This document shows positions 9,420 through 61,950 of a stretch of 64,000 nucleotides of DNA, in pieces. The DNA is from Opitutia bacterium (GTDB taxonomy: Bacteria > Verrucomicrobiota > Verrucomicrobiia > Opitutales > Opitutaceae). Numbering within the stretch: the stretch's first letter is position 1; the number at the start of each line of letters is the position of its first letter. The stretch is taken from NCBI GenBank assembly GCA_947475065.1, contig CANJLB010000003.1, forward strand, positions 20,214 to 84,213, in the 5' to 3' direction. Below the pieces are notes generated by a model that worked only from the letters and a program-made list of their open reading frames with translations, was not told where the DNA came from and did not search any database. The translations under genes were made by a program, and so were the position numbers.

Positions 9420-9426
9420 GGGAAAT

Positions 9427-9541
9427 ACGGATTGCGGATTGTGGAGTGCGGAATTTTCGGAGGTGAAAAAGTGGGCGCCGCCGTGAAAATTTTCAGCGGG
9501 TTCGCGTCATCTCATTCCGCACTCCGAATTCCGCAATCCGC
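9427..9541. repeat. imperfect ~29-bp inverted repeat with ~57-nt spacer between ybaB and recR
   Basis: tacggattgcggattgtggagtgcggaat (9427-9455) pairs with attccgcactccgaattccgcaatccgca (9513-9541). Each arm contains a tandem cggattg heptamer. Confidence 0.6.
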
Positions 9542-9544
9542 ATT

Positions 9545-9853
9545 TCAAAACATCCCCGGCATCTGGAACTGGCTCGTGACTTTCTGCATCTCTGCGTCGT
9601 GGTGCGCCTTGGCCTGCTGGGCCGCGTCCTGCACGGCGGCGAGCACGGTGTCGGCCACGAGCTTGGCGTCCTCCTTGAGGAATTCCGGATCTAGCGTGAG
9701 TGCGAGAAACTTGCCGCCGCCGCTGATTTTCACGCGCACCGCCCCGCCGCCGCTCGTGACTTCGATTTCCTTGGCGTCGAGCTGCGCTTGGAGCGACTCG
9801 ATGCCGCGCTGCATTTTCTGGGCTTGTTTGAGAAGTTTGCCAACGCCAGCCAT
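9545..9853 (-). CDS. ybaB: YbaB/EbfC nucleoid-associated protein
   Basis: 102 aa: MAGVGKLLKQAQKMQ...VTSGGGAVRVKISGGGKF...MPGMF. This is the canonical YbaB sequence, and ybaB-recR synteny is preserved. Confidence 0.9.
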   Translation of the reverse strand: MAGVGKLLKQAQKMQRGIESLQAQLDAKEIEVTSGGGAVRVKISGGGKFLALTLDPEFLKEDAKLVADTVLAAVQDAAQQAKAHHDAEMQKVTSQFQMPGMF

Positions 9854-11147: not shown

Positions 11148-12359
11148 ATGAACACACCCCGCCTTGCCGTGTTTTTGCTTGCCCTCGTCTCCGCCGGCCT
11201 GGCCTGCGCGCAGCCGGCCACCAACGCCGCCAACGGCGCCGTGCAGGTCGTTTCGCCCGAAGTGGCGGCCGACCGCTCGATCACCTTCCGCCTCTATGCG
11301 CCCAACGCCCAGTCGGTCACGCTCAATGGCGATTTTTTTGCCAGCAACAACAGCAACGGCCCCGCTTTGACCAAAGCATCCAATGGCGTCTGGTCACACA
11401 CCGTTCCGCCCCAGCCGCCGGGTGTCCATGGCTATTATTTTCGGATGGACGGCCTGCGCCTGCCCGACCCAAGCAACCTGCTGGTCTCGTCCAGCACCGA
11501 ATTTCTCAAAAGCTACGTCGAGGTGCCCGGCGACGCCACGCAGTTCACGGCCGTGCGCGAGGTGCCGCACGGCCAGTTGCACGAGGTCTGGTATAAAAAC
11601 GCCTCCCTCGGCCAGCGCCGCGTCGTCATCTACACGCCGCCCGGCTACGACCCCGCCGCCGCCCGCGCCTACCCAGCCATCTACCTCCTGCACTCTACCA
11701 CCGACAACGAGACCTTCTGGTCGCGCATCGGCCGCGTGAACTTCATCTTGGACAATCTTCTCGCCGACGGAAAGGCCAAGCCCATGCTGCTGGTCATGCC
11801 GTTCGGCCATGTCTCTGTGCCGCGCGGCCCCGAGGAAGGCGCCGGCGGCAACGACCTCTACGACGTAGCCGTCATCGGCAAGGACATCGTCGAAAACATC
11901 ATCCCCTTCGTCGAAAAACAATTTCATGCCGGCAGGTCTCCCGCCGACCGCGCCATCTTCGGCATGGCGATGGGTGGCTACCAAGCCATCACCATCGGGA
12001 TGAACTACGCCGGCACGTTCAGCTACGTCACAGCGACGAGCGCCAATTTCCGAGCCAACATGGATCTGGCCGCCAATTTCAAGAATTTGAATGTGGATGC
12101 CGCCAAGCGCGACATCAAATACCTCACCATGATGGCCGGCAACGCCGAATCCGGCAGCTTCCCGCAAAGCACGCGCGTGATCGAGTACTTTACCGGTCTC
12201 GGCTTAAAGAACGAGTGGATGACCCCGGAGGGCACGCATACGTGGCACAGCTGGCGCGGCTACATCCGTGAGATGTTCGAACGCAAATTTTTCTCCGACG
12301 ATCCCTATGCCGCACCGAAAATCACGGGTGGGCCCGCCGCCAACGCACCCGCGCGCTGA
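11148..12359 (+). CDS. secreted esterase (PF00756 'putative esterase'/CE1-like) with N-terminal CBM48-like domain
   Basis: Signal peptide MNTPRLAVFLLALVSAGLACAQP. N-terminal domain FRLYAPNAQSVTLNGDF...NGVWS, then the esterase core (YLLHSTTDNETFW...GMAMGGYQA). Paralogous to 29348 and 47505. Confidence 0.8.
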   Translation: MNTPRLAVFLLALVSAGLACAQPATNAANGAVQVVSPEVAADRSITFRLYAPNAQSVTLNGDFFASNNSNGPALTKASNGVWSHTVPPQPPGVHGYYFRMDGLRLPDPSNLLVSSSTEFLKSYVEVPGDATQFTAVREVPHGQLHEVWYKNASLGQRRVVIYTPPGYDPAAARAYPAIYLLHSTTDNETFWSRIGRVNFILDNLLADGKAKPMLLVMPFGHVSVPRGPEEGAGGNDLYDVAVIGKDIVENIIPFVEKQFHAGRSPADRAIFGMAMGGYQAITIGMNYAGTFSYVTATSANFRANMDLAANFKNLNVDAAKRDIKYLTMMAGNAESGSFPQSTRVIEYFTGLGLKNEWMTPEGTHTWHSWRGYIREMFERKFFSDDPYAAPKITGGPAANAPAR

Positions 12360-26176: not shown

Positions 26177-26222
26177 GAAATTTATGCAGGAAGCCATAAA
26201 CCCCGGAATTTTGATTTCAGCC

Positions 26223-26253
26223 TTCTTGGCTTCCTGGTTTCCTGCTTAATTAT
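26223..26253 (+). repeat. partial copy of the TTTCTTGG-periodic module of repeat family A
   Basis: cttcttggcttcctggtttcctgcttaatta lies just upstream of the FabI-like start. Compare 48611-48633 and 50530-50553. Confidence 0.45.
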
Positions 26254-30642: not shown

Positions 30643-31051
30643 TCACGCCTGGCGTTCACAGGAATTATCGTGCGCATCTGACCTGAAAAAAGCGAGTTGC
30701 GAAAACTAGGGTGTCGGGATGCTTGATCGCCGGAGCCGTGTCCCCATGTTCGCTTCCGTCTGAGTTCTTTCACCGCCTAAGGCGACGCCGCTTCCTCGGC
30801 GTCAACACGGGGGAACCAATATCCGCTGCGCTCTCTCGCGGCGGACGGGGCGAACGGACGCAGGCGACTGCGCCCAAGGTCACTTCCTAGGACCAAGCCC
30901 GTCAGCTAACCTCGTCGGCAATGGGAAGGGTGATCCACTAGGGCTCCCGCCTCGGCGGGATGTCCCCACGGTCGCTCCAACGCAATCGCACCGTCGTGTG
31001 CATACGGGAATACCGTGTGTGCCGCCGGGGCACTTCACGGAGATTAATCCT

Positions 31052-32950
31052 ATGACCGCCTTGTTCTCATCCCCCTCGGATGTCGTGCGCCTGCTCGCGC
31101 ACCTCTTGCTCATCGGCGCGGGCCTCGTGCTCGTGGGCTTCGCCTGTCAGAGCCGCCGCCCTGCCGCCCGCCTCTGCTTCGGTGCGGTGGCGCTCGCCTT
31201 TGCCGTCGCCGCGATCCTGCTGGCCGAGAGTTGGCCGGAGCGCGCGCTGCTGCTCTCCGGCGGCCTGATCTTCGCACCGGCGCTGCTCGGCCTGGTGGTC
31301 ATTCGCGAAAGCCAGGTCGGCGTCGTCATCAAGAAGTTTTCCCCGCGTTCGCTGCCTGCCGGCCAGTTCATCGCGCTCGACGGCGAGGCTGGCTACCAGG
31401 CCGACACGCTCCCGCCCGGGGTGCATTTCGGCCGCTGGTTCTGGCAGTTTTCCATCGTGAAATTTCCGGTGGTGGTCGTACCGCAGGGCGAGGTGGCGCT
31501 CGTGGTCGCCGCCGCCGGCATACCCATCCCCGCCGAGCGCATCCTCGCCAAAGTGGTCGCCTGCGACAGCTTTCAGGACGCCCGCAAGTTTCTGCTCGGC
31601 GGCGGCGAGAAAGGCCGCCAGCTCGGCCTGCTTACCGCCGGCACCTACCGGATCAACCCGGCAATGTTTCAGGTCATTACCGGCCGTCCGATCACGCTCA
31701 TCCAGCCGGATCAGGTTGGCATCGTCACGACGCTCGACGGACGCCCGATTGACCCTGGCGAGATCGCCGGGCCGTTATTGGGCGGTCACGAAAACTTCCA
31801 AAATGCCCAGGCGTTCATCGCGGGCGGCGGCCGGCGCGGGCTGCAGGAACAGGTGCTGCTCTCCGGCTCCTGGAACCTCAACCCGTGGTTCGCGCAGGTC
31901 GAGCAGGTGCCGATGCTCAGCATCCCCATCGGCTCCGTCGGCGTGGTCATCTCCTTTGTCGGCCTGGCACACGAGGATGTGAGCGGCGCGGCCTTCAAGC
32001 ATGGTGATCTTGTCAACGTGGGCCACAAGGGCGTGTGGGTTTCGCCGCTCTATCCCGGCAAGCACCCGGTCAACACCCGCGTGATGCGCGTCGAGCTCGT
32101 GCCCACCACCAACATCGTCCTCAACTGGGCCAACCGCACGGAGTCGCACCACTTCGATGAAAAGCTCAGCTCCATCACGGTCCGCTCCAAGGATGGCTTT
32201 GCGTTCAACCTCGATGTGGCGCAGATCATCCATGTCGGCGCGCCCGACGCGCCCAAGGTCATCTCGCGCATCGGCTCGATGCAGAACCTGGTGGACCATG
32301 CCCTCCAGCCGATTGTTGGAAACTACTTCCGCAATTCCGCGCAACACCACACCGTGCTGGATTTCCTCAATGCCCGGAGCGACCGCCAGGCCGAGGCTTC
32401 GGCCCATATCCGCATCGCGCTCGCTGCCTATGACGTGCAGGCCATTGACACGCTCATCGGGGACATCACGCCGCCCGCCGAACTGATGAAAACCCAGACC
32501 GACCGCAAGATCGCCGAGGAGGAAAGGAAGACCTATGAGACGCAGGAGGCCGCTCAACGCCAGCGGCAGGAACTCGTGAAAGCCACCGCACTCGCCAACA
32601 TCCAGCAGCAGATGGTGGACGCCGACCAGGGCGTGCGCATCGCCGAGCTGCATGCGCAATCCGCCATCCGCTGCGCCAACGGCGAGGCCGAGTCCACGAA
32701 GCTCCGCGCACTGGGTGAGGCCGACGCCATCCGGGCCACTGGCAACGCCAAGGCCGAGGCCTACCGCGCCGGGGTCGAGGCGATCGGCGGCGCGAACTAC
32801 ACGCTCATGCAGCTCACGCAGACGCTCGCCGAACGAAACATGCGCATCGTGCCCGACGTGTCGGTCACTGGTGCGCAAGGCGGCAACGGCCTGCTCGACT
32901 CGATGCTTGCGCTGCTCGCACGGGAGAAAACCGACCGGAAGGCCGCCTGA
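31052..32950 (+). CDS. SPFH/band-7 (flotillin-like) membrane protein
   Basis: Two N-terminal TM helices, SPFH core and a long C-terminal coiled coil rich in EA repeats (flotillin-like). Started at the internal Met. Confidence 0.75.
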   Translation: MTALFSSPSDVVRLLAHLLLIGAGLVLVGFACQSRRPAARLCFGAVALAFAVAAILLAESWPERALLLSGGLIFAPALLGLVVIRESQVGVVIKKFSPRSLPAGQFIALDGEAGYQADTLPPGVHFGRWFWQFSIVKFPVVVVPQGEVALVVAAAGIPIPAERILAKVVACDSFQDARKFLLGGGEKGRQLGLLTAGTYRINPAMFQVITGRPITLIQPDQVGIVTTLDGRPIDPGEIAGPLLGGHENFQNAQAFIAGGGRRGLQEQVLLSGSWNLNPWFAQVEQVPMLSIPIGSVGVVISFVGLAHEDVSGAAFKHGDLVNVGHKGVWVSPLYPGKHPVNTRVMRVELVPTTNIVLNWANRTESHHFDEKLSSITVRSKDGFAFNLDVAQIIHVGAPDAPKVISRIGSMQNLVDHALQPIVGNYFRNSAQHHTVLDFLNARSDRQAEASAHIRIALAAYDVQAIDTLIGDITPPAELMKTQTDRKIAEEERKTYETQEAAQRQRQELVKATALANIQQQMVDADQGVRIAELHAQSAIRCANGEAESTKLRALGEADAIRATGNAKAEAYRAGVEAIGGANYTLMQLTQTLAERNMRIVPDVSVTGAQGGNGLLDSMLALLAREKTDRKAA

Positions 32951-40602: not shown

Positions 40603-40723
40603 TAGTGGTATAGTTTTGGTCGGTGGTAGGTTGCGCGCTCGCCGCGCAACTCCGGCGACAGAGGGCAAACGTGGCGTGACGAGCACGCCACCTACCCCGG
40701 AAAATTCAAACTGTACCACTACC
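40603..40723. mobile_element. BIME/MITE-like element (REP-A + REP-B palindromes) flanked by 10-bp direct repeat GGTCGTTGGG
   Basis: The target-site-like duplication lies at 40593-40602 and 40724-40733. Terminal inverted repeats tagtggtatagtttt / aaactgtaccacta. Internal palindromes gtaggttgcgcgctcgccgcgcaac and gtggcgtgacgagcacgccacctac are the same units that flank the RAYT at 60 kb. Confidence 0.65.
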
Positions 40724-41116
40724 GGTCGTTGGGCGATCACCGGGACCGGTTCCAGCTCCTTCAGGCATCCCTTCCCACCGGCGTCTTGAACTCGGCGCTG
40801 AACGTTCGTCTGTGTTTTGGCATGGAGGACTCTGCCCCATCAATCCGTCCCCCGCCTTCGGCAAAGGCTGCGCCGCTACGCTTCCCCTGGCTCACAACAA
40901 CTCACAAAAATCGGCCTGCCCCCTCGGCTTGGCCGCCGCCCGCGCGCGGGCCGCAAGCGGCCTGGCGTCCGTTTTTCGTCACAACGATAGCCCAATGCGA
41001 AAGATTTTCCGAGGGATTCGGGCGGCAGCGGGCGTCTTTGGGGTGAAGCCCATCCACCCGACCACATAAACCTGCATCCTTCTCCCTTCAAAATTTTCAC
41101 CACCCAAGTTGCCTTC

Positions 41117-43376: not shown

Positions 43377-43457
43377 GTCACCCCTGCGCTGGCAGCACGA
43401 AGATGCCCGGCATATCGGCCAGGGCGCGGCACCGCCCAGGTTTGCACAGCGGTTGTC

Positions 43458-43562
43458 CGGTGGTAGGTTGCGCGCTCGCCGCGCAACTCGGGCGACAGAG
43501 GGCAAACGTGGCGTGACGAGCACGCCACCTACCCCGGAAAATTCAAACTGTGCCACCACCGG
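43458..43562. mobile_element. BIME/MITE-like element, second copy (~95% identical core to 40621-40723)
   Basis: cggtggtaggttgcgcgctcgccgcgcaactcgggcgacagagggcaaacgtggcgtgacgagcacgccacctaccccggaaaattcaaactgtgccaccaccgg. Confidence 0.65.
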
Positions 43563-43900
43563 CCGGCGGCGGCACCATCACATGGCCCATGACAGCGGCG
43601 AACAGGGTTTCAGATTATTCAAGAGTGGAGGACCGAATCCTGTCCCGGAAGGCTCGTTGCCCGTACCGCATCAAGTTATGCCAACGTCTGTTAACATTGG
43701 GACGATGGGCCCGATAGCGCCGGGAAGGTTCGGTCCCGGCTCTCCCGAGCCTTTTGGGCTACACTGAGCGGCGCGCCCAGCGGGCACGCCCTACCTTGGG
43801 ATCACCCGATTAGTCTGTAGCTCAGCAAAATCCCCGTCTCCGCAGCCTGAGCCCCTTGGGCGGCTCCCCTGCCCTGCCGGCCATCCAGCCGCCTCACGCC

Positions 43901-48584: not shown

Positions 48585-48830
48585 TGGTGCTTGGTTCCTA
48601 GTTCGGGATTCCTGGTTTCTTGGTTTCTGAATTACGACCGGATTTTGAATGGCTGATGTCGGCCTGCGGCCTCGGTAACAGAAGCCAGGAAGCCAGGAGG
48701 GAAAAGCTGTTACCGAGCGAAGCGACAGGCAAGTCGCACGCCAAAGCTGAAAGGCTGAAAGCTGAGGCAGGAGGCCAGAGGTCAGAGGCCCGAGGAGGCG
48801 GAGGACGTGGGCATCTTGCGATGCTGTGAG
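48585..48830. repeat. intergenic repeat family A, copy L
   Basis: Modules: cctggtttcttggtttctgaatt (48611-48633); gaatggctgatgtcggcctgcggcctcggtaacagaagccagga (48647-48690) with internal hairpin ctcggtaacag/ctgttaccgag (48671-48717); aaagctgaaaggctgaaagctgag (48743-48766). Confidence 0.55.
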
Positions 48831-48973
48831 GCGAAACTAATCTCATTCTGTCGTCCCCATCCGTGCCTATCCGTGGTTTCAACTGCGTTGTTTAGGTTCA
48901 AAATCGCCTCGCGGCGATGGCGCAAAACGCTTGCGTCCAGGCGGACGGTGTTTTCACATGACCGTTCTCCCTC

Positions 48974-50443
48974 ATGGCATATGACTGGCTCAAAGGTGCG
49001 GCAGATGAATACGACGTGATCGTCATTGGCAGCGGGTTGGGCGGCCTCACCGGCGCCAACGTGCTCGCCAAGGCCGGCCACCGCGTCCTCGTACTGGAGC
49101 ACCACTATCAGTTTGGCGGGCTCGCCACGTGGTTCACCCGCAAGGGCGGGCACACTTTCGACATCTCGTTGCACGGCTTTCCCGCCGGCATGATCAAGTC
49201 CTGCCGCAAATACTGGACGAAGGAGATCGCAGACTCGATCGTGCCGCTGAAGGACATCCGCTTCATCAACCCGCAGATGGACGTGTGGACGACTTTCACG
49301 CGCGAGGACTACACCCGCGTGCTCACCGAGCAGTTCAAGCTCGACCGTGCCGAGGTGGAAAAGTTTTACGATCACCTGCGGGCGATGAATTTTTACGACG
49401 ACAACCGCGAGACCACCGGCGAGATGTTTGAGCGGTTTTTTCCCGGCCGGCCCGACGTCCACCGGCTGCTCATGGAACCCATCGCCTATGCCAACGGCTC
49501 GACGACCGACGACCCGGCGATCACCTATGGCATCGTGTTTTCCAACTTCATGGGCGCGGGCGTCTTCACCTTCCGCGGCGGCTCCGACCTCCTCATCGAA
49601 AAAATGGTCGCTGAGCTGAAAAAGAACGGGGTCGAGCTGCGGAAGAAAGTTCTCGTCGAAAAAATCCTGGTCGAGGAGCACGACGGACGGAAAATCGCCT
49701 GCGGCATCGTGGCCAAGGGCGGGCGCGTCATCCGCGCCAAGGCCGTGCTGTCCAACGCCAGCATCAAAAACACCGTGCTCCGTCTGGCCGGCGAGGAAAG
49801 CTTCCTGCCGGCGCATCCCGGCTATGTGGCGGCGGCCAAAGCCGTGCGCATCAACCACAGCTCCTGCCAGGTCTATCTTGGCATCCGGCAGGGCGAGAGC
49901 ATCCCGCATATCGGCGACCTCGTGTTCACCTCGGCTTCGCCGGCGTTCAGCAGCGCGGCCCTCACGGATTTCCACACCACCAGCCGCACCTTTTCGGTCT
50001 ATTACCCGGATACGCGCCCCGGTTCCGGCCGCTACACCGTCGTCGTCTCGCTGAACAGCAATTACGCGGACTGGACGCGGCTTTCCGAAGCGGATTACGA
50101 ACGGGAGAAGACACGGCTCATTGAAGAGTCCCTCACGGCGCTGGAGGGCTATATCCCCGGGGTGCGCGCAAAGATTGACTGGATGGAGGCGGCGACACCG
50201 CGCACCATTGAACGCTACACAACGCATCTCGGCGGCACGTCGTTCGGCACGAAGTTCGAGGGGCTGAAAGTCTCGATGGATTTGCCCGAAAACCTGCCCG
50301 GCCTGTTCCACGCCGGCAGCGTGGGCATCATCATGTCCGGCTGGCTTGGCACCATCAATTATGGCGTCATCACGGCGAACAAGATTGATCGCCATCTGGC
50401 TGCGCTGCAGCGGATGTCAGGTTTGAATGGCGGAAAAAGCTGA
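48974..50443 (+). CDS. FAD-dependent oxidoreductase of the phytoene desaturase (CrtI)/amine-oxidase family
   Basis: N-terminal dinucleotide fold [29 protein letters not shown]. 489 aa. Confidence 0.85.
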
Positions 50444-50715
50444 GAGCTGAGAGCTGGCGGAAAAGCTGAGAGCTGAAAGGCTGAAAGCTGAAATCGGAGG
50501 CTAGGAATCGGAGGGCAGCGTGCTTGCTTCTTGGTTTCTTGGCTTCTGAATTTTACCGTCTGGATTGGTCGGAGGGATCGCGGAAATCGGAGAAGATAAT
50601 GGCTGATGTCGGCCTTGCGGCCTCGGTGACAGAAGCCAGGAGACCGAAGACGGAGGGTGCATCGCGGAGAAGTGGAACGGCGGAAAAGCTGAGAGGCGAG
50701 ATCGAGATCGGATGA
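50436..50715. repeat. intergenic repeat family A, copy R (same modules as L, begins at the CrtI-like stop codon)
   Basis: gctgagagctgagagctgg...gctgaaaggctgaaagctgaaat; cttggtttcttggcttctgaatttt (50530-50553); aatggctgatgtcggccttgcggcctcggtgacagaagccaggag (50598-50642). Confidence 0.55.
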
Positions 50716-53020: not shown

Positions 53021-54526
53021 TCACTCGCCGCCGGTGGCGACGCGCATGACACCGGCCTCGGTCCACTCCGCGCGCGGGCGCACGGCGGCCAGCTCGCCCC
53101 GGCACATCACGCCGATGGTGTCGCACAGCCCGAGCAGCTCGGGCAGGTAGGAGCTGACGACGACGACGGCCTTGCCCGACGCGGCGAGGTCGCCGATGAG
53201 CTGGTAAATCTGGGCCTTGCTCCCCACGTCAATGCCGCGCGTCGGCTCGTCGAGCAGGAAAATTTTCGCGGGGTGCTCCAGCAGGCGCGCGAAGGCGACC
53301 TTCTGCTGGTTGCCGCCGGAGAGCTCGCCGATGGGTTGCGCAGCGTCGCGGCATTTCACCCGCAGCTCGTCCACCCAGCGCTGCGCGGTCGCGCGCTGGC
53401 GCCCGCCGCTGATGAAGCCGAAGCGGCCGAAGCGATCCTGTTTCGTGAGCGTCAGGTTGTCGGCGATGGACTGCGAAAGCATCAGCCCCTCCTCCTTGCG
53501 GTTCTCGCTCAGAAAGCCGACGCCCTCCGTCCAACGCGCGCGCGGCGTGGAACGGCCGGCGGGCGCCCCGACGACGCAGACCTCGCCAGCGGCCAGTTCG
53601 TCCAACGAGAAAATCGCGCGCAGCAAATCCGTGCGGCCCGCGCCGATCAGCCCGCCGAGGCCGAAAATCTCGCCCGCCCGCACCTGCAAGGTGGCGCACC
53701 TGAGGCGCGGCGGGCTGACGGCGGCCCTGACCTCCAGCACGACCGCGCCGGTGGCGTGCGCGGCGCGCGGGTAGAGGTCTTTCACCTCGCGGCCGGTCAT
53801 CAGCGTGACGAGGTGGTCGAGCGTCGCGCCCTTCATCTCGCCGGAGCCGACGGTCTCGCCGTCCTTGAGCACGGTGTAGCGGTCGGCGATCCGGCGGCAT
53901 TCCTCCAGAAAATGGCTGATGTAGATGACGCCGACGCCCTGCGCGCGCAGGCGGCCAATGGTGGCGAAGAGCTTTTCGGTGTCGGCCTGCGTGAGGCTGC
54001 TCGTCGGCTCGTCCATGATGAGAATTTTGGGCTGCTTGAGGAGCGCGCGGGCGATCTCGATGACCTGCTGCTCCGCGATGGAAAATGCTCCCGCCGGGCG
54101 GCCGAGGTCGAGCGCCTCGTGGCCGAGCTGCGCAAGCGCGGCGCGGGCGCGCTCGCGGGAGGCCGCACGGTTGATCCAGCCGGCACGGGCGGACTCGTCG
54201 CCGAGCAGGATGTTCTCCTGCGCGCTGAGGTGCAGCGCGAGGTTGAGCTCCTGGTAGATCATGGCGACGCCCTTGAGCCGGGCATCGTGCGGGTTCTCCG
54301 GCAGGTAGGGCCGGCCGGCGAGCTCCATCGAGCCGGCGTCGGCCCGGTGCGCGCCGCTGAGGATTTTCATCAGCGTGCTCTTGCCCGCGCCGTTCTCGCC
54401 GATGAGCGCGTGAACCTCGCCGGGCGCGATGCCGAAGGAAACCCCGCGCAGCGCGTGGGTGGCGCCGAAGCTCTTGCGGATGCCCGCCAGCCGGAGGCTC
54501 GCGGCGGTGGTGAGAGGGTTTGTCAT
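53021..54526 (-). CDS. sugar ABC transporter ATP-binding protein with two NBDs (RbsA/XylG-like)
   Basis: Two Walker A motifs (GENGAGKST; GLIGAGRT), two ABC signatures (LSGGNQQKV etc.), 501 aa. Its ATG start codon lies inside a 33-bp repeat copy. Confidence 0.9.
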   Translation of the reverse strand: MTNPLTTAASLRLAGIRKSFGATHALRGVSFGIAPGEVHALIGENGAGKSTLMKILSGAHRADAGSMELAGRPYLPENPHDARLKGVAMIYQELNLALHLSAQENILLGDESARAGWINRAASRERARAALAQLGHEALDLGRPAGAFSIAEQQVIEIARALLKQPKILIMDEPTSSLTQADTEKLFATIGRLRAQGVGVIYISHFLEECRRIADRYTVLKDGETVGSGEMKGATLDHLVTLMTGREVKDLYPRAAHATGAVVLEVRAAVSPPRLRCATLQVRAGEIFGLGGLIGAGRTDLLRAIFSLDELAAGEVCVVGAPAGRSTPRARWTEGVGFLSENRKEEGLMLSQSIADNLTLTKQDRFGRFGFISGGRQRATAQRWVDELRVKCRDAAQPIGELSGGNQQKVAFARLLEHPAKIFLLDEPTRGIDVGSKAQIYQLIGDLAASGKAVVVVSSYLPELLGLCDTIGVMCRGELAAVRPRAEWTEAGVMRVATGGE

Positions 54527-54553
54527 TCTGAGCGCAGCGAAGAATCCAGTGCG
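54521..54553. repeat. 33-bp repeat copy 1 (tgtcattctgagcgcagcgaagaatccagtgcg)
   Basis: Overlaps both the GIY-YIG stop/C-terminal 10 codons and the ABC ATPase start codon. It is identical to copy 2 at 54893-54925. Confidence 0.8.
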
Positions 54554-54870
54554 GTGTTGGCATCCACTGAAACATCATGCCACCCCTCGGCCAAGTCTTT
54601 CCAAAGGGGATTTTCCTGCTGGATCAGAGCGATCTTCCGATCACGCCGCCAACCCTTCAGCTCGGTTTCACGGCGGATGGCGTTGGTCACATCGCGGAAC
54701 TCCTCAAAATAGACCAGCCGGTGAAGGCCGTAGCGCTTGGCAAAACCATCCTTGGCCCCGGTCTTGTGCTGCCAAGTGCGTCGTTCGAGAGAATTGGTGA
54801 CACCGATGTAAAGCGTGCCGTGCGGCTTGTTGGACAGGATATAGACCCAGTAGCTGCGGTAGGTGGACAT
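54523..54870 (-). CDS. GIY-YIG nuclease family protein (small, standalone)
   Basis: YILSNKPHGTLYIGVTNSLERRTWQH...GWRRDRKIAL is the GIY-YIG catalytic module. 115 aa. It is inserted between the ABC substrate-binding and ATPase genes. Confidence 0.85.
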   Translation of the reverse strand: MSTYRSYWVYILSNKPHGTLYIGVTNSLERRTWQHKTGAKDGFAKRYGLHRLVYFEEFRDVTNAIRRETELKGWRRDRKIALIQQENPLWKDLAEGWHDVSVDANTALDSSLRSE

Positions 54871-54892
54871 CTTGAAAGGGCGGAAAAAGGCA

Positions 54893-54977
54893 TGTCATTC
54901 TGAGCGCAGCGAAGAATCCAGTGCGAATCTCGATGGCGGACATCCAACTGGATTCTTCGCTGCGCTCAGAATGACAA
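54893..54977. repeat. 33-bp repeat copy 2 plus inverted copy 3 forming a ~30-bp-stem hairpin upstream of GIY-YIG
   Basis: tgtcattctgagcgcagcgaagaatccagtgcg (54893-54925), a 22-nt loop, then ctggattcttcgctgcgctcagaatgaca (54948-54977), the perfect reverse complement. Confidence 0.8.
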
Positions 54978-55039
54978 ACTGGGGGGCGTGCGCTCGGATT
55001 ACGCAGGCATTTCGGCTCTCCCAAACGGGCGCGCGCGGG

Positions 55040-57780: not shown

Positions 57781-57859
57781 CGGGTAATCGCAGAGGGAGA
57801 ATGGCAGAGGGGAATCGTGTTCCGAGCGCAGCGACCAACTGACAATCGGGCAACTGATA

Positions 57860-57967
57860 ATCGGGAATCTTGAAATTGGACATGAGCGGCCTTCGCCGCG
57901 CGGAGAGGGATTTTCAGTTTCTCGATGCCCGATCAGGCTGATGTCGCTTCGCTCGGTACAGTTTTCG
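57860..57967. repeat. intergenic repeat family B, copy B1
   Basis: aatcgggaatcttgaaattgg (57860-57880) and ttttcagtttctcgatgcccgatcaggctgatgtcgcttcgctcggtacagttttcg (57911-57967). It shares the ggctgatgtcg...ctcggtacag core with family A. Confidence 0.5.
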
Positions 57968-57989
57968 CGATGTCGGGGGAGAACATGGT

Positions 57990-58832: not shown

Positions 58833-58867
58833 CGGAAGGTGGGGAATCGTGAAATCAGAAAACTGAA

Positions 58868-58980
58868 AATCGGGAATCTTAAAATTGGCGACGGGCTATC
58901 TGGCGCGGGGTTGCAGGGAACTTTTCAGTTTAACGATGCCCGATTTGGCTGATGTCGCTTCGCTCGGAACAGTTTGCAAG
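58868..58980. repeat. intergenic repeat family B, copy B2
   Basis: aatcgggaatcttaaaattgg (58868-58888) and ttttcagtttaacgatgcccgatttggctgatgtcgcttcgctcggaacagtttgcaag (58922-58980). Confidence 0.5.
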
Positions 58981-59783: not shown

Positions 59784-59890
59784 TGCGGGAAAGTGGGGCC
59801 ACGCACACGGCCCGTGGCAAGCCGGATGACTGCCGTGTGATCAGTCCCGCGTGGCAACATGCGGAGAGCGCAACCGACGCGGAATTCCCG

Positions 59891-60035
59891 GAGTTGCGCG
59901 ACGAACGCGCAACCTACACGGATCGGACGTAGGTGGCGTGTTTGCCGCGCCTCGTTTGTCCTGGCGTAGGTTGCGCGCTGGTCGCGCAACGTTTTTCCCC
60001 AGGCCCCGGAGTTGCGCGACGAGCGCGCAACCTAC
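59891..60035. repeat. REP array (three palindromic units in alternating orientation) 10 bp downstream of the RAYT stop
   Basis: gagttgcgcgacgaacgcgcaacctac (59891-59917), gtaggttgcgcgctggtcgcgcaac (59966-59990), gagttgcgcgacgagcgcgcaacctac (60009-60035). Confidence 0.8.
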
Positions 60036-60044
60036 ACGGACCAA

Positions 60045-60563
60045 TCACCCCAGCCACTCGGGGAATGGCTGGCCGTTGTCGGTCAGGTCGCGTAACCACT
60101 CCCAGTCTTCGTCGCGGCAGTAAAAATATGGCCACGTTTCCCCCTCCGCCACCAGCCCTGCCCGGGGCGGGTTCAGCCAGAGGTAGCGGATCACGCTCTC
60201 CGCCGAATCCTCCGGGCGGAGCCGATGGTCGTAGAAATTCTCCTGCCAGCCGGCGCCCTGCGGGCGCAGGAGCGCCTGCGTCTTGGTCTTGAGCCGCGCC
60301 ATGGCCTGCGAGAGCGTGAGCCGTGCGCCCAGCGTGAAAAACAGGTGCGCGTGGTCGGGCATCACGGTCAGGCAGCGCAGCGCCCACGCGCCGTCGGCGG
60401 TCAGGCGGTGCGTCTCGGCGAGCAGAGCGGGGGCGATGCCGGGGACGAGCACGGGCAGGCGCGGTTGAACGCAGACCGTCACGAAATAGTCCGCGTGCGG
60501 CACAGAGGCGCGGCCCCGGCGCAAGGCGTTGGGTCCAGTATTCCGTTTCGGCGGCGGGGCCAT
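60045..60563 (-). mobile_element. REP-associated tyrosine transposase (RAYT, IS200/IS605 TnpA-like)
   Basis: 172 aa from the internal Met. HxH motif in MPDHAHLFF and catalytic Tyr in ENFYDHRL. It is flanked on both sides by REP palindrome arrays, the defining RAYT context. Confidence 0.8.
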
Positions 60564-60575
60564 GCGGGGATTGTG

Positions 60576-60702
60576 GTAGGTTGCGCGCTCGTCGCGCAAC
60601 GTTTGGTTGTCCGGCGTAGCAACAAGGTGGCGTGCTCGTCGCGCCACGGTTGTCATCCGCCGACCCCTGATCCCTGAGTTGCGCGACGAGCGCGCAACCT
60701 AC
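60576..60702. repeat. REP array upstream of the RAYT (REP-A, REP-B variant, REP-A inverted)
   Basis: gtaggttgcgcgctcgtcgcgcaac (60576-60600), gtggcgtgctcgtcgcgccac (60627-60647), gagttgcgcgacgagcgcgcaacctac (60676-60702). The first two lie within the ORF-track N-terminal extension of the RAYT ORF. Confidence 0.8.
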
Positions 60703-60725
60703 TCCGGAGTCCGGGCCAGTTCAGC

Positions 60726-61742
60726 TCACGGCACCTCGATCATGGCTTTCAGCACGGCGGAGTTGCCAGCGATGTCCCTTGGAAAAACGACGGGCGTGTC
60801 GGCGAGCTTGAAGCGGTGGGTGATCCACGGGCGGGTGTCCACCTCCCCGTCCTCGACGAGACGGATGACCTCACGAAATGTGGCCGGCAGGGCGTTGCGG
60901 CTGCCCATGACGGTCAGCTCGCGACGGTGGAAGTTGGGGTCGTTGAACGTCACATCGCCCTGGAAGAGACCGACGAAGACAATACGCCCGCCGTGCGCAG
61001 GCAGGTCGAAGCAGCCCATCATCGAGCCGGGGTTGCCCGTGGCATCAATCACGCAGGTTGGCAGATCGCCGGCGCCAATGCGCCTCAGCTCGTCCGCCGC
61101 GCCGGGGCCGGGCCTGAGGGTGTGCTGAATGCCAAGCTGTTTCCGGCAAAAGTCGAGGCGCGTGTCACTCACGTCCATCACCGCGAGTTTCGCACCGGAG
61201 ACTTTGGCAAACTGGATCACGCTGAGCCCGATCGGACCGGCGCCGATCACGAGGATAAAATCGTCCTTGGTGGGCGCGGCGCGCTCCACGGCGTGGGCGC
61301 CGATGCCGAGCGTCTCGACCAGCGCGAGCTGCTCGTAGTCGAGCTTGGCGGACGTGTGCAGCTTATGGGTGGGGATGCGCAGAAACGGCGCCATGCCGCC
61401 GTCAATGTGGACGCCCAGCACCTGCAGCGAAGTGCAGCAGTTTGGCTTGTTGCGGCGGCAGGCAATACAGGTGCCGCAGTTCAGATAGGGCTCGACCGCG
61501 CAGCGGTCGCCGGCCTGCAGGCCGCAAGGCTTGTCGCCGGGATCGAGCACCTCGACTCCAAGCTCATGGCCGAGGACACGTGGGTAGGTGAAGAAAGGTT
61601 GCCTGCCGGCGAAAGCGTGAAGGTCAGTGCCACAGATACCGATGCGGTGAACGCGCACGAGGGCGCTGCCCGACGTGGCGGTGGGCATCGGGTGGTCAGC
61701 GGTGACAAACAAACCAGGATGTTCCAGGACGATGGTGAGCAT
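60726..61742 (-). CDS. zinc-dependent alcohol dehydrogenase (MDR family, sugar/polyol dehydrogenase-like)
   Basis: GHELGVEV (catalytic Zn), structural-Zn Cys cluster CGTCIACRRNKPNCC, GAGPIGL Rossmann motif. 338 aa. Confidence 0.9.
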   Translation of the reverse strand: MLTIVLEHPGLFVTADHPMPTATSGSALVRVHRIGICGTDLHAFAGRQPFFTYPRVLGHELGVEVLDPGDKPCGLQAGDRCAVEPYLNCGTCIACRRNKPNCCTSLQVLGVHIDGGMAPFLRIPTHKLHTSAKLDYEQLALVETLGIGAHAVERAAPTKDDFILVIGAGPIGLSVIQFAKVSGAKLAVMDVSDTRLDFCRKQLGIQHTLRPGPGAADELRRIGAGDLPTCVIDATGNPGSMMGCFDLPAHGGRIVFVGLFQGDVTFNDPNFHRRELTVMGSRNALPATFREVIRLVEDGEVDTRPWITHRFKLADTPVVFPRDIAGNSAVLKAMIEVP

Positions 61743-61809: not shown

Positions 61810-61950
61810 CGGAAGGCTTCGCGGCTTCTGTTACCGAGGCCACAAGGCCGACATCAGCCATTCGTCAGAACAGAACATTTAAGAAGGCTTCCTCCTAAAA
61901 ACATCCGTCTGCCTCCGCTTTCATCTCTAATTTTCAGCTCTCAGCGTGGT
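61810..61950. repeat. intergenic repeat family A, copy 3 (reverse orientation)
   Basis: ccgaggccacaaggccgacatcagccattc (61834-61863) is the rc of gaatggctgatgtcggccttgtggcctcgg. aattttcagctctcagcg (~61929-61946) is the rc of cgctgagagctgaaaatt. Confidence 0.5.

Follow-up and report, generated by a model that had tools for sequence, protein, structure and literature searches.

We describe a family of short intergenic hairpin repeats, family A, defined by a shared core, in a 64-kb window of Opitutaceae DNA (the whole stretch analysed, to which all coordinates refer unless another contig is named). The repeat is real and is larger than first described. We put at roughly one in two the probability that it is an Opitutales-restricted, diverged repeat, similar to repetitive extragenic palindromes (REPs) and related to the hairpin repeats of Ssn nucleases, which acts as folded single-stranded DNA. 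This reading draws on the anatomy of the elements, the covariation of their apical stem, their distribution, their sequence resemblance to hairpins at a nuclease gene in the window, and the nesting of their core within hairpins of Ssn genes in relatives. Family A falls outside the strict definitions of Ssn-related motifs (SRMs), CGTC-tagged REPs and GTAG-tagged REPs, and is hence regarded as a variant related to these known hairpin repeats.

The conserved unit of family A is 26–32 nt long and reads GGCTGATGTCG-[variable stem-loop]-CTCGG(T/A)(A)ACAG. Direct reading and repeat computation placed a block of ~45 nt, AATGGCTGATGTCGGCC(T)TG(C/T)GGCCTCGGT(A/G)ACAGAAGCC, at 48648-48692 (+), 50598-50640 (+) and about 61822-61865 (−), in agreement with an earlier note on this DNA which had reported such a core with an internal hairpin at three sites, the third inverted at 61.8 kb. 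The count of three was correct for these sites but incomplete, as two more full copies are present at 57936-57961 and 58947-58972, together with two degenerate inverted partners. The five cores are at 48651 (copy A, +), 50601 (copy B, +), 61859 (copy C, −), 57936 (copy D) and 58947 (copy E), and a covariance model built on 13 core copies (R1) recovers all of them at 51–54 bits. Copy A (48651-48681, +; 52.3 bits) contains the exact 11-mer and reads GGCTGATGTCG-GCC TGC GGC-CTCGGTAACAG, copy B (50601-50632, +; 51.7 bits) has the hairpin GGCC TTGC GGCC with GGTGACAG, and copy C (61828-61859, −; 51.0 bits) has the hairpin GGCC TTGT GGCC. Copies D (57936-57961, +; GGCTGATGTCG-CTTCG-CTCGGTACAG, 53.2 bits) and E (58947-58972, +; GGCTGATGTCG-CTTCG-CTCGGAACAG, 53.9 bits) possess the same flanks around a shorter hairpin, GC-TTC-GC, giving GGCTGATGTCG-CTTCG-CTCGG(T/A)ACAG. 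The exact 11-mer GGCTGATGTCG was found five times in the window, always in intergenic DNA (5/5), and allowing up to one mismatch gave 13 matches against 2.0 expected, a number reached in 0 of 100 shuffles. The complementary strand of the core has the form CTGT(T)(A)CC-GA-[stem-loop]-GA-CATCAGCC, with the centre GAGCGNAGCGA and loops of GNA, GNRA or UUCG type.

The two conserved halves of the core lie 5–12 nt apart, and the spacer between them always forms a stem of changing sequence and length (GC/GC, GCC/GGC, GGCC/GGCC, GCAC/GTGC and GGTCG/CGACC were seen). In a 17-sequence alignment the apical covariation score was 0.141, compared with 0.043 in shuffles, and was reached in none of 500. Pair 20-31 was CG in ten sequences and GC in six, and pair 21-30 was CG in four, UA in two and AU in one. 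The variable spacing together with the covarying stem points to a folded single strand and not to a duplex site. The elements were also rightly called non-coding: the 1-nt indel that separates A from B and C falls within the variable hairpin loop, copies occur in both orientations, and they occupy gene spacers. Two other candidates for the core were rejected, a two-hexamer promoter owing to the 5–12 nt variation between the conserved halves, and a LexA box (TGTTC-N4-GAACA in Verrucomicrobia, PMC4951493) owing to the different arrangement of the half sites.

Relatives were identified by pattern scans. Genome contigs gave 65 matches to the core pattern, convincing only in a Lacunisphaera metagenome-assembled genome (MAG; L012), an Opitutaceae MAG (L029) and a Puniceicoccaceae MAG (L053). 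Metagenome contigs gave 50 matches, convincing in L066, L087, L108, L067 and L106, and viral contigs gave five; most matches were isolated and in coding DNA of unrelated phyla. The core is multicopy where it occurs, with three cores in 8 kb of L012 and five in the 64-kb window. These exact-pattern scans imposed invariant flanks, and the real flank variation is visible only in diverged copies, such as GGCGG(G/A)ATGTCG in L012 and GGCGGCTGTCG...ACTG in L136, a relative discussed below. Copy A has a degenerate inverted partner head-to-head with its core (48707-48730, +; CTGTTACCGAGCGAAGCGACAGGC), which R1 detects in part at 48711-48727 (−) with 19.1 bits, and a second degenerate inverted partner core lies at ~57819-57840 inside the element that carries copy D. 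As such partners are also found in L067 and L108, the module occurs as inverted doublets, in a REP-like manner. No family A was found in Opitutus sp. ER46, Opitutus sp. GAS368 or Oleiharenicola lentus in the 20 kb sampled per species; the latter two contain canonical hairpins. A literature search with the core sequences returned primer-like chance matches only. In L106, at ~300-560 on the core strand, a tandem array lies 3' of an A-like core, with a unit of ~41 nt, GGCGCGCCCGGAGGTCACGCCCTACCATTGG(A/G)GCTTCG(A/G)C, and the opposite strand has a GTAG-tagged hairpin.

Around the core, copies A and B are enclosed by a long stem. The short-period arrays of TTTCTTGG and GCTGARAG octamers that had been reported are present; what had gone unnoticed is that the TTTCTTGG octamers on the 5' side of the core pair with the GAAGCCAGG octamers on its 3' side in a single enclosing stem of 20–22 bp, a pairing first noticed through a chance microRNA-like Rfam match. 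In copy A the left arm (48609-48629, +; TTCCTGGTTTCTTGGTTTCTG, composed of TTTCTTGG octamers) pairs with the right arm (48679-48699, +; CAGAAGCCAGGAAGCCAGGAG) over 21 bp including three G.U pairs. The arms of copy B, likewise located by folding, are at 50526-50548 (+; GCTTCTTGGTTTCTTGGCTTCTG) and 50630-50649 (+; CAGAAGCCAGGAGACCGAAG). Predicted folding energies were −49 kcal/mol for the plus strand of copy A versus −32.4 for the minus strand (z = −4.0), and −62.8 versus −40.9 kcal/mol for copy B (z = −4.1), the plus strand folding better because three pairs per stem are G.U. A fixed order of three modules, as first proposed, does not hold: copy B has an array of GCTGAGAG and GCTGAAAG (50428-50493, +; repeat-finder periods 7, 15 and 26, and pattern search) 5' of its TTCTTGG array, and copy C has lost the long stem along with the TTCTTGG arm. 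On the 3' side of copy A, purine-rich short-period arrays of GCTGAAAG and GAGGCCA occupy 48743-48800 (+). GGA-dense purine-rich stretches (CAGGAGGCCAGAGGTCAGAGGCCCGAGGAGGCGGAGGA) were also observed beside copies A and B, at 48766-48800 and 50560-50700, and raise the possibility of a CsrA-type sponge.

Copies D and E belong to a second type of element, in which the core is a side branch of a larger palindrome. Element D (57812-57968, +; predicted folding energy −68 kcal/mol) fills the spacer between the fuconolactonase and MR_MLE genes and has a GC-rich central hairpin, and element E (58841-58972, +) lies in the spacer between the adh_short and fuconolactonase genes. These two and their relatives in other Opitutales are low-complexity palindromes of 130–200 nt that span the gene spacer, with a 5' arm consisting of a run of purine-rich 7-8-mers (e.g. 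GGGGAATCTTGAAAACTGAAAATCGTGAAATC) and a complementary 3' arm. The core forms an insert of 23–26 nt in one arm, ~14 nt inside that arm's outer end, so the predicted fold is a long hairpin from which the core branches. The outer arms covary between copies, with ...CTTGAAAA/TTTTCAAG... in one and ...CGTGAAAA/TTTTCACG... in another, and likewise GGGAATCTTGAAAA/TTTTCAAGATTCCC versus GGGAATCGTGAAAA/TTTTCACGATTCCC. Similar low-complexity palindromes that lack a core abut start codons at 9420-9548 (CGGATTG/CAATCCG arms) and 26187-26246 (GGAAGCC/GGCTTCC arms). The latter location had been listed as a fragment of the family at 26.2 kb, but R1 finds no core there and it is a separate hairpin sharing the octamer vocabulary. 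The spacers of this genome seem generally to contain low-complexity palindromes, with or without a core.

The orientation of the core relative to neighbouring genes is not uniform: D, E and two L012 copies (L012-1 and L012-2) are antisense, A, B, L012-3 and the copies in L029 and L066 are sense, and those of C and L087 are in divergent spacers. Copy C lies 5' of a Zn-ADH gene (60726-61742, −) and is orthologous to a copy in L136 (1306-1347), with 33 of 39 core positions kept and the flanking low-complexity DNA unalignable. The D and E spacers of the fucose operon have orthologues in L136 and L137 that contain the same palindrome type with the core absent or reduced to a remnant, and specifically the E-orthologous spacers contain a palindrome without a full core. 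Taken together, the orthology of copy C and the variability of the palindromes mark the module as old and maintained, yet gained and lost within palindromes; palindromes that are otherwise equivalent have the core in neither, one or both arms. Among named relatives O. lentus (L139) is the closest, with a fuconolactonase that is 83% identical, and its orthologous spacers have other palindromes and GTAG or TGTC hairpins. Its operon spacers at 11597-11720 and 14990-15070 of L139 were observed to contain CCACTAAT units and a ACACGGAAC palindrome, and the spacer vocabulary appears to be lineage-specific.

Copies A and B bracket a CrtI-like gene as direct repeats in the window, as the earlier note had pointed out, but the arrangement is not conserved in relatives. 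The gene encodes a strongly conserved NAD/FAD oxidoreductase (84–94% identical protein in many Opitutaceae) whose neighbours vary by species, and no core was found beside it in L131, L132 or Opitutus sp. ER46, making the bracket a local accident.

A candidate for the class of protein that would read the module is encoded ~4 kb from family A copies. This 115-aa single-domain GIY-YIG protein (54523-54870, −; PF01541, E = 2e-14) resembles the Ssn proteins, single-domain GIY-YIG nucleases of ~100 aa with genes in a repeat-gene-repeat layout (PMC11893778). Ssn proteins bind their repeats and cut a few nucleotides upstream, and do both exclusively with single-stranded DNA of one of the two strands; a C directly past the palindrome is critical for binding, specificity varies among homologues, and in Neisseria SsnA changing the palindrome sequence while keeping its structure abolished activity (PMC11893778). 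Residues Y10, Y21 and E68 of the window protein have the same spacing as Y6, Y17 and E64, which were mutated in that study (PMC11893778). A TGTC-tagged hairpin, TGTC-ATTCTGAGC-GCA-GCGAAGAAT-CCAG (54521-54552, +), makes the 3' end of the gene and encodes the protein's C-terminus, ...LDSSLRSE*, and an inverted pair of the same hairpin (54893-54924, +, and 54945-54976, −; spanning 54893-54976, inverted repeat I11, 30 nt, 100%) lies just 5' of the gene. Approximately 60% of the 120 listed Opitutaceae homologues share the tail peptide, hence the hairpin travels with the nuclease gene. The cassette (54518-54979) is inserted between genes for a sugar-transporter periplasmic-binding protein and an ABC-ATPase, a spacer which also holds an Ssn gene in the L141 and P0274 contigs. 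All three hairpins at 54.5-55.0 kb fit the description of CGTC-tagged REPs, having an AT-first stem and a CCA tail, and that of the Ssn-related motifs (PMC11893778) as well.

Family A resembles these hairpins in sequence. The 11-mer GAGCGNAGCGA at its centre has eight matches in the window against 0.54 expected, four in family A copies and three in the hairpins at the nuclease gene, and the two kinds of repeat can be aligned over their centre, their TGT head and their ATC(C)AG tail, with the outer stem positions of family A not complementary. In two relatives, L140 and L141, the 3' TGTC hairpin of the Ssn gene encloses the inner core (TGTCG-hp-CTCGGTAAC), which R1 detects with 19.1 bits (E = 2e-5) in L140 and 10.5 bits in L141. 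The nested insert is of the same subtype as the degenerate partner of copy A (48707-48730), and the nesting is visible in the protein tails (...SLRSVTSLRSE). From this resemblance and nesting we infer that a protein of this kind could be the partner of family A and the source of any activity.

The family shares several properties with published repeats. Like the Ssn-related motifs (NTS/SRM; Chenal et al. 2025, PMC11893778), its members are short oriented hairpins with unpaired conserved flanks, multicopy and almost always intergenic, and they recall the TGTC hairpins at the Ssn-like gene of the window in the centre GAGCGNAGCGA, the TGT head and the ATC(C)AG tail, with the inner core nested in Ssn gene tails of relatives. 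They differ from SRMs in the head (CTGT/TGTT and not HGTC), the non-complementary lower stem, the apical stem that is free in sequence and length, the failure of the SRM search pattern, the location within long low-complexity palindromes, and a cognate nuclease that is only a candidate. The CGTC-tagged REPs (Di Nocera, De Gregorio and Rocco 2013, PMC3733652) include TGTC variants with AT-first stems and a CCA tail, are mostly head-to-head dimers and have no known transposase. Family A likewise consists of tagged stem-loops followed by a short tail, forms inverted dimers and has no associated transposase, but falls outside the class definition (terminal tag CGTC, TGTC or CCTC, AT-first stem of 8-9 bp, loop of 4-5 nt, CCA-like tail), with stems of 2–5 bp flanked by GA/GA and loops of 3–4 nt; there is also no report of this superfamily in Verrucomicrobia. 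The GTAG REP/REPIN-RAYT systems, with a GTAG tag 5' of an imperfect palindrome and copies flanking a RAYT gene, are similar in being hairpin repeats read in single-stranded form, in forming long hairpins from inverted doublets and in their vertical persistence. However, family A lacks GTAG, and the RAYT-like Y1 gene in the window is flanked by another, GTAG-tagged family. Correia elements of Neisseria, ERIC/IRU and RUP/BOX are also intergenic palindromes of 100–200 nt, co-transcribed and able to form long hairpins. In these the full-length consensus is well kept, whereas in family A conservation is confined to the small core, and each copy has arms built from its own low-complexity 7-8-mers.

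Several results weigh against the reading of family A as Ssn-related single-stranded DNA. The published SRM pattern, HGTCWYN(0-2)YYVSBRHN(0-5)WNVSBRGN(0-2)RNCYNB, has no match on either strand of the window, where mononucleotide shuffles average 0.74, and the hairpins at the nuclease gene fail it as well. SRMs have a conserved GTC tag directly before the palindrome and a C directly after it; the family A tail, ...CAT-C-AG, keeps this C in all full copies except L012-3, and the head is CTGT/TGTT instead of (C/T)GTC. The positions of the canonical lower stem (ATTCT/AGAAT) are not complementary in family A, and its stem varies freely, unlike the tested Neisseria SsnA repeat with its sequence-dependent activity. 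The GIY-YIG gene in the window is flanked by TGTC hairpins and not by family A; among the 120 listed homologues none is flanked by a full family A core, only the inner part being nested. Nor was an Ssn gene found at the family A loci of L012, L029, L087 or L108 in 1–8 kb of sequence. The window protein is Ssn-like by its PF01541 match, residue spacing and hairpin setting, with membership of cd10448 only a candidate assignment. No target-site duplication or empty-site pair was found in the available sequence. Finally, the same kind of palindrome persists in orthologous spacers of three species, which could mean a role in operon transcripts.

If family A does act as Ssn-related single-stranded DNA, its functional unit would be the two conserved single-stranded flanks joined by the short variable stem-loop. 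The module is nested in spacer-filling palindromes, either within the loop (A and B) or as a side branch of an arm (D, E and relatives), often with a decayed inverted partner. Upon exposure of single-stranded DNA during replication, repair or uptake the module would fold, and an Ssn-type or similar hairpin-reading protein could then recognise it. Recognition may lead to maintenance or propagation of the repeat and to action on nearby DNA; transcribed palindromes would influence mRNA, if at all, only as a by-product. A further-reaching version, which we offer only tentatively, would make family A and its palindromes the repeat population of a REPIN-like replicator run by a GIY-YIG (Ssn-type) nuclease and not by a Y1 transposase. 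The core would be the recognition hairpin of an uncharacterised Ssn specificity class, and nicking beside a folded core, followed by hairpin-primed repair, could build and homogenise the arms; such a model would explain arms that are copy-specific yet self-complementary, as well as the nested hairpins.

The main rival, possible but clearly less probable, and compatible with the single-stranded DNA reading, is a cis-acting role in operon mRNA. In this case the transcribed palindromes would form intercistronic hairpins of 45–70 bp, serving as RNase III sites, mRNA stabilisers or in stop-start coupling, with the core as a protein-binding side branch. The palindromes do span whole spacers, with outer ends 0–25 nt from stop or start codons, and the same kind is found in the orthologous fucose operon spacers of the window, L136 and L137, those of O. 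lentus having palindromes with another vocabulary; folding z-scores near −4, covarying outer arms and G.U-rich stems also fit. However, arm covariation can equally result from hairpin-templated repair of DNA palindromes, equivalent palindromes carry the core in zero, one or two arms, and the isolated core as RNA folds no better than shuffles (z = −1.9 to +1.3). A lower-helix RNA model for the core (CUG/CAG plus UGUC/GGUA) was set aside, its pairs being nearly invariant and hence uninformative and the isolated core having no energetic support, and a hammerhead or k-turn built on CUGAUG was rejected by inspection as the GAAA and D-box counterparts are missing. Strand asymmetry is no proof of RNA either. 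In 8 of the 10 elements the better fold is that of the strand with the core (GGCUGAUG; 68 versus 30 G.U pairs), but core-less intercistronic palindromes (at 9.4 kb in the window and in L136, L137 and L139) are also biased, the strand antisense to the genes folding better in five of six (43 versus 16 G.U pairs). D, E, L012-1 and L012-2 likewise fold better antisense to genes; operon spacers usually favour the strand which is not the mRNA, and the asymmetry of the core-bearing strand is thereby confounded. Selection against mRNA hairpins that are too stable, or a strand bias in mutation, might account for the antisense preference.

Decayed miniature inverted-repeat transposable elements (MITEs), the nearest of the three candidates put forward in the earlier note, are an unlikely explanation in their classical form of non-autonomous derivatives of a transposon with terminal inverted repeats, moved in trans by a transposase that reads these repeats. 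Terminal inverted repeats are present, with complementary and covarying outer arms, in elements of 130–200 nt, and the long palindromes hold core doublets arranged head-to-head or tail-to-tail. Elements are multicopy (three in 8 kb of L012, five cores in the 64-kb window), assemblies break at them and their presence among relatives is patchy. Against this, the available sequence revealed no target-site duplications, parent transposon, autonomous element with the same termini or related full-length insertion sequence, copies are kept at orthologous sites across species, and it is the internal core that is conserved while the low-complexity arms differ strongly between copies.

Independently transcribed small RNA genes, another of those candidates, are less probable still. 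The intergenic location, conservation of the core across genera, orientation independent of neighbouring genes and better folding of the GGCUGAUG-carrying strand would all be expected of a small RNA family. However, E-value scans over A and D/E gave chance-level microRNA-like matches only and no Rfam family even at E = 10, a search for sigma-70-like promoters came up empty, terminator-like sites are about as numerous as in shuffles, the core alone is unstable as an RNA fold, and several elements begin less than 10 nt from a neighbouring start codon, leaving no space for a promoter of their own. The remaining candidate, duplex-DNA sites for a transcription factor such as a response regulator, built from octamer arrays and core, might be suggested by direct octamer repeats 5' of genes but is highly improbable, as the arrays are two complementary arms of one stem and are not conserved in sequence at orthologous sites, the core halves lie at distances that span a 7-nt range and are always bridged by a covarying hairpin, and the genes next to the copies are unrelated and may precede, follow or enclose them.

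The role of Ssn nucleases and their repeats outside Neisseria was stated to be unknown (PMC11893778), and the spread of CGTC-type REPs had no explanation (PMC3733652). The Verrucomicrobial lineage studied here combines a canonical nuclease-hairpin cassette, a diverged hairpin family with a free stem, and nested composites of both, offering a natural series in which to ask whether it is flanks or stem that the nucleases read, and whether these enzymes generate their own binding repeats. As the elements occupy operon spacers and break metagenome assemblies, annotators should recognise them and call no open reading frames (ORFs) or small RNAs there.

Assemblies of the source organism itself break at the repeats, and contigs of the same species showed no polymorphism across A and B, all being identical. 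One strain variant (L117, from 11532 on) departs from the window at 50505/50506, 62 nt past the CrtI-like gene and to the left of copy B, and another contig terminates at this divergence point. The new sequence begins with TGAAGATTGCC and has repeated CCCCGAA-like motifs; next come a TniB/AAA_22 gene and a gene for 735 aa. It probably represents one terminus of a Tn7/Tn5053- or Mu-like element.

A separate GTAG-tagged repeat family is also present in the window. A Y1_Tnp gene (IS200-like, RAYT-type; 60045-60656, −) is flanked (59879-60705) by the GTAG-tagged REPs GTAGGTTGCGCGCTCGCCGCGCAAC and GTAGGTGGCGTG...CACGCCAC, and by GTAGGTTGCGCGC...GCGCAAC repeats, and two 113-nt doublets of the GTAG-REP family, 95% identical, lie at 40613-40728 and 43450-43565. 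These repeats and the Y1_Tnp gene look like a REPIN-RAYT system apart from family A. A scan of the window with Rfam 15 at gathering thresholds detected only a tRNA-Gly and a c-di-AMP riboswitch (RF00379; 30764-30935, +; 52.4 bits), the latter located 5' of a 650-aa ORF (30998-32950).

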